Shown: positions 40,675-42,271 of the stretch, in pieces | Layout: every line of letters starts with the position of its first letter | Position numbering within the stretch: the first letter of the stretch is position 1 | Sequence record: MW822008.1 | Source of the DNA: Escherichia phage BF17 | Direction: 5' to 3' (one strand) | Length of the DNA: 64,000 nt | Translations under genes and position numbers: made by a program | Notes under the pieces: generated by a model | Told to the model about the DNA's origin: nothing | Database searches by the model: none | The model's input: only the letters and a program-made list of their open reading frames with translations

Positions 40675-40683
40675 TGAAAAAGC

Positions 40684-40711
40684 TTGACTAAATAGTTCAG
40701 TACTGTATAAT
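40684..40711 (+). promoter_or_regulatory. early promoter cassette copy 1 with CAGTACTG
   Basis: ttgact 40684-40689, cagtactg, tataat 40706-40711; 42-bp block identical to 41104-41145. Confidence 0.6.
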
Positions 40712-40742
40712 GTTTGTATCTTAACTTATATGGCAACTTGAT

Positions 40743-41108
40743 ATGTTTAGTGAATATGAAGAAGCAATAAAACACAACATTGAAGATTCACATAACTTCC
40801 AATTTTATAATTGGGATGAACTAATGAAATTGTACTTACAGTGGGTTGAAGATGAAGAAACTTCTGAACAACGAACTGTTATGTTAAACATTTCGTTACG
40901 TAAAGACCTTAGTTCAATTAGTGTTGAAGTTATGACATCTTCAACTTATGCAGAAGAAGATCATAATCCCTATGTTTCAGGTACTTCCCCTGTACCAAAG
41001 ACTGAAGAAGAATATTTTCAAACGAGTACTGTACAAAAACCATTATTCACTTATGAGTTCTATAAGTACTTGATTGGCAAATTCAAAAAAATGCGAATTA
41101 ATTCTTGA
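40743..41108 (+). CDS. family-A paralog
   Basis: TEEEYFQTSTVQK; stop TGA lies inside the -35 of the next promoter cassette. Confidence 0.6.
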   Translation: MFSEYEEAIKHNIEDSHNFQFYNWDELMKLYLQWVEDEETSEQRTVMLNISLRKDLSSISVEVMTSSTYAEEDHNPYVSGTSPVPKTEEEYFQTSTVQKPLFTYEFYKYLIGKFKKMRINS

Positions 41109-41132
41109 CTAAATAGTTCAGTACTGTATAAT
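41105..41132 (+). promoter_or_regulatory. early promoter cassette copy 2
   Basis: ttgact 41105-41110, tataat 41127-41132. Confidence 0.6.
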
Positions 41133-41164
41133 GTTTGTATCTTAACAACAGAAGGTATATTGAA

Positions 41165-41404
41165 ATGGGTAAGTATTTTGTGAGTTATAGTTATAATGTA
41201 TCACGAAAGATTCCACGTGGTGACGGAATGGGATGGTCTTATGATGCATATACTTTAAATGAGTCATGTATCATCGAATTACAAGAAAAAGACCTTGACA
41301 TTTTAAAAATCAAACAATATATTCTTGATGTTGAATTGGCACATCGTACTGATACCTATCCAGATGTAAACAACATCAGCATCTTAGTACTAACCAAAGT
41401 ATAA
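41165..41404 (+). CDS. hypothetical small protein
   Basis: ATG 41165 downstream of promoter; ORF-track 41135 start lies in promoter. Confidence 0.45.
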   Translation: MGKYFVSYSYNVSRKIPRGDGMGWSYDAYTLNESCIIELQEKDLDILKIKQYILDVELAHRTDTYPDVNNISILVLTKV

Positions 41405-41483
41405 GATAAAAAGAACTTTACTAAATAATTCCACTGGAGATTAATATGTTTAAAGATGAACGTCCAGATTTGTAAAAAGTACT

Positions 41484-41511
41484 TGAATAAATAATTCAGT
41501 ACTGATATAAT
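41484..41511 (+). promoter_or_regulatory. early promoter with CAGTACTG, heading an ORF-poor region
   Basis: ttgaat 41484-41489, cagtactg, extended -10 tgatataat 41503-41511. Confidence 0.5.
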
Positions 41512-41519
41512 GAATTCCA

Positions 41520-41870
41520 CAATCAGACGTATATGGTGTAAGTTACGTCGATGTAATCCAGAACAAGATCTCTGGTACTCTAGGAAGTGGTGAATGTTAA
41601 CCTAGACGGGTTTGATAATTGGACGATAGGCAATTATTACTTGACTAGCAGGTTTAAACTAGAGGTGACCGTCCTTCACCAAACTGGAAAACCGGATGGA
41701 CTTTTATTTAAAAGGGTAAGGCGTGGAAATATGTTTACAGAAGTTGCTTTTAGTAGCCTGTACGCCCCACGTCAAGGTAGTCGAAAGGTAAGTTAAAACG
41801 GGTGGTTATAAAGCTGAATTAACAGCGGCGTTTAAAAGCGTCACCATCCATTTTTTTTTAATTAAAGTTG
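41520..41870 (+). ncRNA. candidate structured non-coding RNA (unclassified)
   Basis: About 350 nt after a promoter with no ATG-initiated ORF of 60 aa or more and no RBS; ends near a T8 run. Confidence 0.3.
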
Positions 41871-41875
41871 GTGAT

Positions 41876-42247
41876 ATGAGTGTTAAAGACATTTCAAAGT
41901 ATGAAGAGTTTCTTAAATCATTTTTGAATTCAGAATTAACGACAGACCATACCAATAACTGGTGTCAAGATAATCCTGGAATTCGCATTTTCAATGGATA
42001 TGGCGAATCATTTCTTATAAATGACGATGAAATTGTTTTTGAATCATTTGAAGAAATAAAAAGGACAAATAACACTTTACGTGATATAATAAATAGTATA
42101 AATGCTCAATACATTACCTTCCAGCTAAGTTCTGATGAAGAAGATGAATTTCAGAAAAGCACAGTATATGAAAATGTGTTTCCACATGAATTAAATTCTG
42201 TGATATTTAAAGTGTTGGAGAAGGTTTTTTCCGAAAATAGTACTTGA
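41876..42247 (+). CDS. family-A paralog
   Basis: DEEDEFQKSTVYE; stop TGA inside the next promoter -35. Confidence 0.6.
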   Translation: MSVKDISKYEEFLKSFLNSELTTDHTNNWCQDNPGIRIFNGYGESFLINDDEIVFESFEEIKRTNNTLRDIINSINAQYITFQLSSDEEDEFQKSTVYENVFPHELNSVIFKVLEKVFSENST

Positions 42248-42271
42248 CTAAATAGTTCAGTACTGATAAAA
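42244..42271 (+). promoter_or_regulatory. promoter cassette copy 3 (partial) driving tRNA cluster
   Basis: cttgactaaatagttcagtactg shared with copies 1 and 2; -10 region degenerate (gataaa). Confidence 0.45.

Follow-up and report, generated by a model that had tools for sequence, protein, structure and literature searches.

AGTACT, a clade-wide iterated palindrome of Rak2-like jumbo phages with a fixed place in predicted early promoter cassettes

Introduction

In a 64,000-nucleotide stretch of Escherichia phage BF17 (sequence record MW822008.1; here called the window), an identical promoter-like block stands before two different small genes and carries the palindrome AGTACT. A first-pass annotation took this block for a shuttling promoter-gene module, an operator for a palindrome-binding regulator, or both. 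Positions 40000 to 44000 of the window are 98.6% identical to Escherichia phage Ecwhy_1 and also match about 40 other Asteriusvirus genomes of ~350 kb (PBECO4, 121Q, phAPEC6, G17, and Sharanji among them); by these matches, the source phage is placed as an Asteriusvirus (PBECO4/121Q-like), a Rak2-like jumbo coliphage of about 350 kb. Here, we report that AGTACT recurs at high copy number throughout this phage clade as a palindrome maintained by selection and that it has a second role, at fixed positions, in early promoter cassettes. The pattern suggests a previously undescribed DNA signal that marks phage DNA.

AGTACT is iterated throughout the window and shapes its coding sequence

The first-pass annotation had proposed k-mer statistics against a composition-matched null, and these returned a large excess: 167 copies of AGTACT in the window versus 18.1 ± 4.4 in dinucleotide-preserving shuffles (9.3-fold) and 37 copies of the octamer CAGTACTG versus 1.04 ± 1.0 expected (about 36- to 43-fold). 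Among 6-, 7-, and 8-mers, AGTACT is the core with by far the greatest over-representation (z ~ 50), and no other palindromic hexamer is in strong excess. Many GC-containing palindromic hexamers are at zero where 3 to 8 copies would be expected (ACCGGT, AGCGCT, AGGCCT, CAGCTG, CCATGG, CCTAGG, and CGATCG), which is typical restriction-site avoidance and contrasts with the ninefold excess of AGTACT. Copies occur at 7 to 17 per 4 kb with a mean spacing of 378 bp, and they are spaced more evenly than chance would have them (coefficient of variation [CV], 0.80 versus 0.99 ± 0.07 for random placement; largest gap under the 5% quantile of random placement). The flanks show a symmetric preference for C at -1 and G at +6, with G at -1 (16/167) and C at +6 (14/167) the least frequent bases. 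Sites within genes share 1 or 2 flanking bases with the promoter cassettes described below and nothing more. Single-mismatch variants of AGTACT are mildly enriched (1.1- to 2.3-fold).

Most copies lie in open reading frames (ORFs), which hold 150 of the 167 at a density of 2.7/kb versus 2.1/kb in noncoding DNA. All frames are used (66/28/51 for ORFs on the + strand), and we saw no bias in the window toward gene starts, gene ends, or any relative position. Codon choice does not account for the count: 33 ± 5 ORF sites were expected when synonymous codons were shuffled with the proteins fixed and 21 ± 5 when codon order was shuffled. Ser-Thr dipeptides are written AGT-ACT in 67 of 117 cases, where codon usage predicts 16. 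Furthermore, the dipeptides themselves are in excess, with 117 Ser-Thr versus 76 expected (Thr-Ser, 70) and 150 Val-Leu versus 110 expected (Leu-Val, 108); therefore, the pressure reaches the protein sequences.

AGTACT is maintained across Rak2-like phages of Enterobacterales

We determined the observed and expected numbers of AGTACT in samples of related phages and in comparison genomes.

Sharanji, late/structural region: 86 observed, 15.7 expected
Sharanji, 1-50 kb: 209 observed, 15.3 expected
Sharanji, 305-350 kb: 155 observed, 12.5 expected
Klebsiella phage RaK2: 114 observed, 10.8 expected
Cronobacter phage GAP32: 114 observed, 12.9 expected
Pectobacterium phage CBB: 70 observed, 4.3 expected
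T4: 7 observed, 9.7 expected
E. coli K-12, 50 kb: 3 observed, 4.8 expected
Pseudomonas phage PA5oct (MK797984 100001-140000): 1 observed, 11.3 expected

The hexamer is over-represented 5.5- to 16-fold in the Sharanji, RaK2, GAP32, and CBB samples. Extrapolation from the Sharanji samples gives about 1,000 copies per genome, or about 1 per 380 bp, and the phage density is about 40 times that of the sampled 50-kb E. coli K-12 stretch. In PA5oct, a distant Pseudomonas-infecting relative, AGTACT is depleted, in contrast to its excess in the group's enterobacterial members. When IMG/VR was scanned for CAGTACTGTATAAT, many matches were single chance ones on unrelated contigs, where AGTACT was at expectation, and loci with multiple matches lay on contigs of ~350 kb with 3 to 10 sites/kb (two exceptions, on 108.9-kb and 6.7-kb contigs). 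The literature on RaK2, CBB, PA5oct, phAPEC6, and Sharanji and a 2026 jumbo-phage review, which we covered incompletely, described neither AGTACT enrichment nor the promoter architecture reported below, and similarly incomplete literature searches on AGTACT with jumbo phages or bacteriophages returned nothing relevant.

Next, we examined whether individual sites are retained. In an alignment with the homologous 40.5 kb of Sharanji (84% nucleotide identity), AGTACT was retained at 83 of 110 aligned sites (75.5%); the control values were 45.4% for hexamers overall and 47.8% for those matched in composition. Private sites number 26 or 27 in each genome, and this equality implies that the number of sites is kept while individual sites turn over. 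All four window sites in the gene for the topoisomerase II large subunit, gp39, are found at the same codon-aligned positions in Cronobacter phage GAP32 (72% protein identity). Across 41 RaK2-GAP32 ortholog pairs (60% protein identity), 11 of 75 AGTACT sites were shared; where the overlapped amino acids were identical, the hexamer was kept in 11 of 17 cases (65%) versus 27 to 30% of controls. The turnover between RaK2 and GAP32 implies that selection acts more on density than on position. These comparisons show moderate purifying selection on each site and strong maintenance of density. Judged by these alignments and counts, AGTACT is shown to be kept beyond neutral expectation in all of the Rak2-like phages of Enterobacterales that were tested.

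The same data bear on whether the hyper-abundance has a function at all, as it might instead be the product of repair, conversion, or mutation with a sequence bias or consist of the remains of many decayed cassettes. Rapid turnover of sites at depth under constant density would fit such an origin, as would the mild enrichment of single-mismatch variants, which decaying sites should produce, and biased repair has been discussed for the cyanobacterial palindrome HIP1 (highly iterated palindrome 1) (PMC5861425). However, this account does not predict above-background conservation at synonymous positions, the four of four positions common across genera in gp39, the shift of the proteins themselves toward Ser-Thr and Val-Leu, or spacing that is more even than random. 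Additionally, the neighbors of the motif lack the depletion expected of a conversion substrate, and intragenic sites resemble the cassettes in just 1 or 2 flanking bases. We therefore consider a functionless origin improbable. Biased repair of the very-short-patch type was rejected separately, as no single-mismatch neighbor is depleted enough.

AGTACT occupies fixed positions in predicted early promoter cassettes

The block that drew attention to the locus belongs to a set of four cassettes, all on the + strand, with hexamers predicted as follows.

40683-40725, +, cassette A: -35 TTGACT at 40684-40689, 16-bp spacer, -10 TATAAT at 40706-40711, and a single AGTACT at 40699-40704
41104-41146, +, cassette B: 43 bp identical to A, with -35 TTGACT at 41105-41110 and -10 TATAAT at 41127-41132
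41474-41516, +, cassette C, full form: AGTACT at 41478-41483 abutting -35 TTGAAT, and AGTACT at 41498-41503, 2 bp before -10 TATAAT at 41506-41511
42235-42277, +, cassette D, full form: AGTACT at 42239-42244 and 42259-42264, -35 TTGACT at 42244-42249, and -10 TAAAAT at 42267-42272

The -35/-10 match scores at 40684, 41105, 41483, and 42244 are 10 to 11 of 12. The first-pass annotation had described an identical 42-bp block at 40683 and 41104; the identity is real, and the length is in fact 43 bp (40683-40725 = 41104-41146). As it had also said, the first 23 bp of the block are present again at 42243-42265. This third copy is closer to cassette C, as 42235-42277 and 41474-41516 are 88% identical over 43 nucleotides (nt). 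A 43-mer occurring twice was seen in zero shuffles of the window. The identical 43-bp block is also found in the independently sequenced relatives WPEC3, vB_Ec-M-J, PBECO4, and Sharanji, and the repeat is therefore no assembly artifact. The cassettes are the only long identical stretches shared between unrelated small genes. Two ORFan genes end within them.

40743-41108, +, ORFan gene of 121 amino acids (aa) between cassettes A and B, with its stop codon inside the -35 of B
41876-42247, +, ORFan gene of 123 aa, with its stop codon inside the -35 of D

As noted at first pass, the TGA of the former (41106-41108) falls within TTGACT at 41105-41110 and that of the latter (42245-42247) falls within TTGACT at 42244-42249. 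The proposal that these two ORFs are paralogs of one family ("family A") has weaker standing, as it comes down to one BLASTP match with 11/37 identities at equivalent C-terminal positions (E = 0.007).

Upstream of each of cassettes A, B, and C, within ~100 bp, there are two more AGTACT copies (regions 40627-40704, 41025-41125, and 41386-41503). For A and B, these lie in the 3' end of the preceding gene, and for C they do so in part; the pair at 40627 and 40647, for example, is 20 bp apart. Positions 41064-41085 resemble a decayed cassette -35 region.

To place AGTACT relative to promoters in general, we scanned the + strand of the window. Six of 42 sigma70-like sites have an AGTACT that ends 0 to 2 bp before the -10 (40684, 41105, 42244, 50887, 58377, and 62686) versus about 0.3 expected from site density. 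A seventh promoter of this kind is cassette C at 41483, whose -35, TTGAAT, is too weak for the promoter scan. In the early region of Sharanji, 15 of 36 promoter-like sites have AGTACT just before the -10. Thus, the positional enrichment of the palindrome in promoter spacers anticipated by the earlier annotation is present in both genomes (6/42 versus ~0.3 and 15/36), and the particular promoters that it named carry the hexamer just upstream of the -10 at 41483, 58377, and 62686 and overlapping the -35 at 17634. The features outside the cassette locus proper include the following.

58377-58404, +, predicted promoter of the AGTACTG-TATAAT class: TTGACA, 16-bp spacer, TATAAT
62686-62713, +, predicted promoter of the AGTACTG-TATAAT class
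43406-43419, 14-bp perfect palindrome ATTCAGTACTGAAT, an extended form of the motif
43527-43540, ATTCAGTTCTGAAT, a one-off variant of the 14-bp palindrome ATTCAGTACTGAAT

The last two are the palindromes that had been noticed near 43410 and 43525.

Alignment of cassettes across related phages revealed one architecture common to RaK2, Sharanji, and CBB: an A-rich tract; AGTACT, whose final T opens the -35; 14 to 15 bp; AGTACT(G); TATAAT; a leader of ~20 nt; and a G-rich ribosome-binding site (RBS) that reads GGGGA/GGAG. In its full form, the cassette thus has two AGTACT copies 20 to 21 bp apart, one at the -35 and one at the -10, that make an inverted repeat in three genera. The start-to-start distance between paired AGTACT copies has a sharp peak at 20 bp for the early region of RaK2 (12 pairs over 11 kb) and at 21 to 22 bp for the CBB terminal repeat (15 pairs), and the peak at 20 to 22 bp is absent from the replication and structural (late) regions. 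The CBB terminal repeat (KU574722 1-24000) has 155 AGTACT in 24 kb. It contains at least 14 promoters with poor -35 hexamers (TTGCAA, TTGCTA, and TTTACT), yet both AGTACT copies and TATAAT are invariant in them; the CBB paper reported only three RpoD-like promoters there. A LexA box was rejected as an explanation for the pairs, as CTG-N10-CAG needs AGTACT pairs that are 18 bp apart and the observed peak is at 20 to 22 bp.

From this layout, the repeated block is best read as a sigma70-type early-promoter cassette of the promoter-early stem-loop (PeSL) type, with -35 and -10 hexamers behind an A-rich tract and an RBS after a short leader. Palindromes sit at fixed positions overlapping core promoter elements in three genera, which is the arrangement looked for in an operator, and AGTACT may possibly serve as the operator of a palindrome-binding regulator. 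Because AGTACT is self-complementary, paired copies make the base of a predicted hairpin enclosing the -35. Predicted stabilities in the window are -9.4 kcal/mol for cassette C and -9.1 kcal/mol for cassette D (z ~ -2.4), and cassettes A and B, without the upstream arm, form no stem. The CBB cassettes have arms of 11 to 15 bp and reach -15.6 and -19.6 kcal/mol (z = -5.8 and -8.0). No T-run terminator accompanies the stems of the cassettes on the + strand, and the terminator half of the PeSL definition therefore applies only in part.

Could the palindrome be an early-promoter operator or element only, with the intragenic copies incidental? The strong positional enrichment before the -10 and the second copy abutting the -35 are what this would predict, and in early hyperplastic regions the noncoding density of AGTACT rises to 10.7 to 13.9 sites/kb, whereas elsewhere coding and noncoding densities are about equal (1.6 to 2.7/kb). 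However, 150 of the 167 window copies are intragenic, an eightfold excess over codon-aware nulls, and the enrichment holds in structural and replication gene blocks without such promoters. As a complete explanation, the promoter-only account is already contradicted by these observations, and we give it hardly any credence. The intragenic copies and the clade-wide enrichment mean that a promoter-centered reading alone cannot be the whole explanation. Both first-pass readings find support, but they took in just a fraction of the pattern: more than 90% of AGTACT copies lie outside promoters.

Cassettes bound gene modules that come and go between relatives

We compared the cassette locus with six related genomes (WPEC3, vB_Ec-M-J, Sharanji, PBECO4, UE-S1, and JNE01). 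Two variable modules were found.

41134-41481, +, variable module with ORF 41165-41404, with cassettes B and C on either side
41549-41873, +, second variable module of ~325 nt behind cassette C, with a T-run at its end and just one weak GTG-start ORF (69 aa)

The stretch 41134-41481 is missing from WPEC3, vB_Ec-M-J, and Sharanji, with the junction falling within the cassette. Gaps with similar boundaries span 41127-41415 in PBECO4 and UE-S1 and 41134-41708 in JNE01. The second module is missing from Sharanji and in part from JNE01. The genes flanking the cassettes are small and annotated as hypothetical proteins in every relative, and the cassettes cluster in early regions where the mean gene length is 260 to 290 nt. 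Because the indel breakpoints of related genomes lie inside cassettes, the cassettes probably act as homologous-recombination sites at which gene modules are added or deleted. The same breakpoints support the view that they would behave as T4-type PeSL shuffling modules. Taken together, the promoter, leader, and RBS layout, the predicted hairpins of the two-AGTACT cassettes, and the breakpoints among six relatives give good support to the earlier comparison of the locus to a shuttling promoter-gene module of the T4 PeSL kind.

A stretch of ~330 nt behind cassette C (41518-41862) is slightly GC-richer. A structured RNA was considered there and set aside, as the stretch had no Rfam match and its fold (z-score, -1.33) was not more stable than those of shuffles; it may hold an RNA or a small gene.

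A dimeric phage protein as the candidate reader of AGTACT

A symmetric 6- to 8-bp palindrome with symmetric flanks is the form expected of a homodimer target on duplex DNA, and the symmetric motif together with the fixed promoter pairs favors a dimeric factor that reads duplex DNA. We propose, as the likeliest reading, that AGTACT would be recognized on double-stranded DNA by a dimeric protein that is encoded by the phages and specific to their clade. Such a protein would prefer phage DNA over host DNA because the phage has about 40 times the AGTACT density of the sampled E. coli K-12 stretch. At the cassettes, paired sites that bracket the -35 and touch the -10 could let this factor, or the hairpin, gate early transcription. 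The whole explanation, in which a PeSL-type cassette and a genome-wide palindrome are joined through the site of a clade-specific dimeric phage protein, is one that we hold tentatively and rate slightly below an even chance.

Several points weigh against this proposal. Promoter activity, timing, and recombination are all inferred from sequence only. Most sites turn over at deep divergence, with 85% not common to RaK2 and GAP32, and in RaK2 and Sharanji (Asteriusvirus) the hairpin is just the 6-bp AGTACT stem, at -4 to -7 kcal/mol. Among 40 window proteins and near the phage sigma gene, Pfam and PHROGs scans found no AGTACT-binding protein or helix-turn-helix regulator; what they returned was just the sigma factor, the HNH endonuclease, the C5 methyltransferase, and replication proteins. 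A regulator of low abundance would be titrated by about 1,000 sites per genome copy, and the factor must therefore be very abundant. Lastly, in Sharanji 370-8092 all 41 copies of TGTACT are on one strand and AGTACT is missing altogether, and this oriented variant is not explained by a symmetric dimer and hints at a directional process.

In Sharanji (OR545507), positions 370-8092 form an 8-kb block of about 20 small co-oriented genes with no AGTACT. On the sense strand, the TGTACT sites read AGTACA, and they occur in all three frames, with ten in noncoding DNA. The block is conserved in G17, PBECO4, 121Q, and others, and the homologous block of fEgEco12 (PP777464 29499-37311; 79% nucleotide identity) has 40 TGTACT, 0 AGTACA, and 0 AGTACT. 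Because a symmetric dimer leaves the oriented block unexplained, a directional process stays among the rival explanations. AGTACT would then be a signal for a directional DNA-processing machine (a Chi-like nuclease regulator, a guide for a translocase such as that of the FtsK-orienting polar sequences [KOPS], or a primase start site), palindromic so as to work both ways and oriented where the process always runs one way. The one-strand pattern and its repetition in fEgEco12 speak for such a machine, as do a motif that is frame independent, blind to gene boundaries, and spaced more evenly than random and the conservation at depth of density rather than position. The phages also code for a RecB-like exonuclease, UvsX/UvsW, a primase-helicase, and topoisomerase II. 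However, the fixed 20- to 21-bp pairs around the early-promoter -35 are not explained by a directional machine, only the palindromic form is present in the physical terminal repeat of CBB, and no enzyme could be linked to the motif. Chi and KOPS motifs, moreover, are asymmetric, and their enrichment is far lower. We regard a directional machine as doubtful.

A 6-bp perfect palindrome is also typical of the targets of type II enzymes. AGTACT could accordingly be the target of a phage DNA-modifying or -cutting enzyme (a methyltransferase or site-specific nickase) whose modification or nick marks phage DNA, in which case the early promoters at the cassettes would become sensitive to the replication or modification state of the DNA. 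The phage codes for a PF05869 Dam-family N6-adenine methyltransferase with close homologs within Asteriusvirus, and a C5 methyltransferase lies in the window at 29394-30254. AGTACT is among the sites discussed for methyltransferases of the giant virus mollivirus sibericum (PMC7253447), and RaK2 DNA is reported to be methylated and resistant to many restriction enzymes (PMC3622015). The methylation reported for RaK2, however, is CpG only (PMC3622015), and homologs of the C5 enzyme (at least 80% identity) were found in only about 33 phage records, the matches listed being Asteriusviruses, though the motif is clade-wide. Moreover, neither hyper-abundance nor even spacing is required of a modification target, and the single-mismatch neighbors lack the depletion that deamination with biased repair would cause. 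An enzyme target is thus rather unlikely. The C5 methyltransferase of the window was rejected as the reader, as its close homologs were found in only about 33 phage records, Asteriusviruses among the matches listed, and the RaK2 report concerns CpG methylation; the distribution and specificity of the Dam-family enzyme, which lies outside the window, were uninformative about AGTACT.

The sites might instead engage a host factor of Enterobacterales, such as the nucleoid-occlusion protein SlmA, which replicating phage DNA would sequester or activate. The 12-bp SlmA binding site, GTGAGTACTCAC, is palindromic with AGTACT at its center (PMC3020112), and the enrichment is seen in phages of Escherichia, Klebsiella, Cronobacter, and Pectobacterium and not in the Pseudomonas relative PA5oct. 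However, SlmA requires G1, T2, A4, and G5, and the window has 0 matches to GTRAGYRCTYAC and 1 to GAGTACTC. The flanks that SlmA needs, G at -1 and C at +6, are the rarest in the window (16/167 and 14/167), and T4, which is also a coliphage, is not enriched. A host-factor site is very improbable, and the SlmA decoy was rejected because the core hexamer matches but the required flanks are absent.

We also considered a further reading, which we think possible though on the unlikely side. AGTACT may be a sequence-encoded "self" tag of a virus without base replacement, by which a clade-specific factor would tell phage DNA from host DNA. This factor could selectively protect, compact, or process phage DNA during the shutdown or degradation of host DNA, and it might also set the timing of the immediate-early promoters, whose -35 lies between two copies. 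On this view, the one-strand TGTACT block would be the same code in directional form.

Gene content of the window

Of 124 ORFs in the window, 119 are on the + strand. The recognizable features are as follows.

4866-8293, topoisomerase II subunits
12660-13613, clamp-loader subunit
17661-18851, TelA
29394-30254, C5 cytosine methyltransferase
42279-42368, +, tRNA-Ser(gct), directly behind cassette D, its presumed promoter
55199-55984, sigma70-family factor
57079-57873, HNH endonuclease

Six tRNA genes lie in 39991-44077. A tandem tRNA-Thr(tgt) pair at 43919-44078 is an 80-bp repeat with 79% identity, and ARAGORN calls a tRNA-Met of 79 nt at 42523-42601. The tRNA set of this island varies among relatives: Sharanji, for example, has an additional tRNA-Arg and tRNA-Gly, and WPEC3, UE-S1, and JNE01 have HNH endonuclease insertions. 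Low AGTACT density in the mobile HNH inserts was considered as a sign of recent acquisition and rejected, as the inserts show normal density. Upstream of cassette A, 40188-40674 consists of three tandem 161-bp units (DNA identity, 76 to 82%), each coding for a 54-aa protein that starts MTHEEWM. Their stop and start codons overlap, and relatives have two or three copies.

Significance and comparison with known systems

Across 350 kb, a single hexamer leaves its mark on codon choice and even on protein sequence; it is conserved over four phage genera and fixed in a class of early promoters. It touches two open questions: how large virulent phages without modified bases tell their own DNA from that of the host and how the expression of hundreds of early ORFan genes is organized and timed. 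AGTACT can be used as a simple signature of this phage clade in metagenomes, and it is a design constraint when these therapeutic-candidate coliphages and Klebsiella phages are engineered. The cassettes would extend PeSL modular gene shuffling beyond the T4-like phages.

Several known sequence systems share features with AGTACT. The DNA uptake and uptake signal sequences (DUS/USS) of Neisseria and Haemophilus and the Chi and KOPS motifs are short asymmetric words with known readers, far above expectation and present in coding DNA in all frames. They are tags by which a protein machine handles its "own" DNA, and DUS often form inverted pairs, as hairpins between genes. AGTACT is likewise short and far above expectation genome-wide, coding DNA included, but it is palindromic, apart from the one oriented block in relatives. 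The phi29 p6 and SPO1 TF1 proteins coat phage genomes and also shut early promoters, recognizing DNA shape or hydroxymethyluracil. Their logic is that proposed here, in which an abundant protein would prefer phage DNA and repress early promoters at specific sites, but p6 and TF1 have no defined hexamer, and no such protein turned up among the 40 window proteins. The SlmA site of E. coli, GTGAGTACTCAC (PMC3020112), is palindromic with a central AGTACT, but the flanks that SlmA requires are absent from, and even disfavored in, the phage window.

HIP1 of cyanobacteria (GCGATCGC) is a closer parallel. Each is a short perfect palindrome that occurs about once per gene, tens-fold above expectation. 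For both, sites fall within and between ORFs (for AGTACT, in all frames and beyond what codon and amino acid usage explains) and are conserved beyond neutral expectation. The two differ in sequence, and AGTACT belongs to a virus whose host does not share the motif. AGTACT also has a set position in one class of promoters; for HIP1, the study by Xu, Lawrence and Durand (2018, PMC5861425) saw no connection with gene expression. Furthermore, GCGATCGC has a 10- to 90-kb periodicity in cyanobacteria, while for AGTACT only evenness of spacing was examined (CV, 0.80). By analogy, AGTACT appears to resemble HIP1 functionally without being a member of the HIP1 family.

For the cassettes, the nearest counterpart is the T4-type PeSL, which consists of a strong sigma70-like promoter, an AT-rich upstream tract, a stem-loop mostly between the -35 and -10, and a Shine-Dalgarno (SD) sequence with a start codon (PMC2839356, PMC4122927). 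PeSLs lie among ORFans, where they give rise to indels through recombination (Arbiol et al. 2010, PMC2839356; Comeau et al. 2014, PMC4122927). Our predicted cassettes, likewise of ~60 to 100 bp, combine an AT-rich tract upstream of a strong sigma70-like promoter with an SD sequence and start codon at the 3' end. They too lie between ORFan genes in hyperplastic regions, and cassette-bounded indels separate close relatives. A stem-loop is again predicted between the -35 and -10, in the two-AGTACT cassettes. Its stem comes from two AGTACT palindromes rather than from G-tracts and C-tracts. Only the Mimasvirus (CBB) stem is strong; the stems of Asteriusvirus and RaK2 are weak, and cassettes A and B are without the upstream arm. 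No T-run follows the stem, which is therefore not a canonical terminator. Finally, PeSLs were originally described in a group that does not include the Rak2-like jumbo phages that carry these cassettes.

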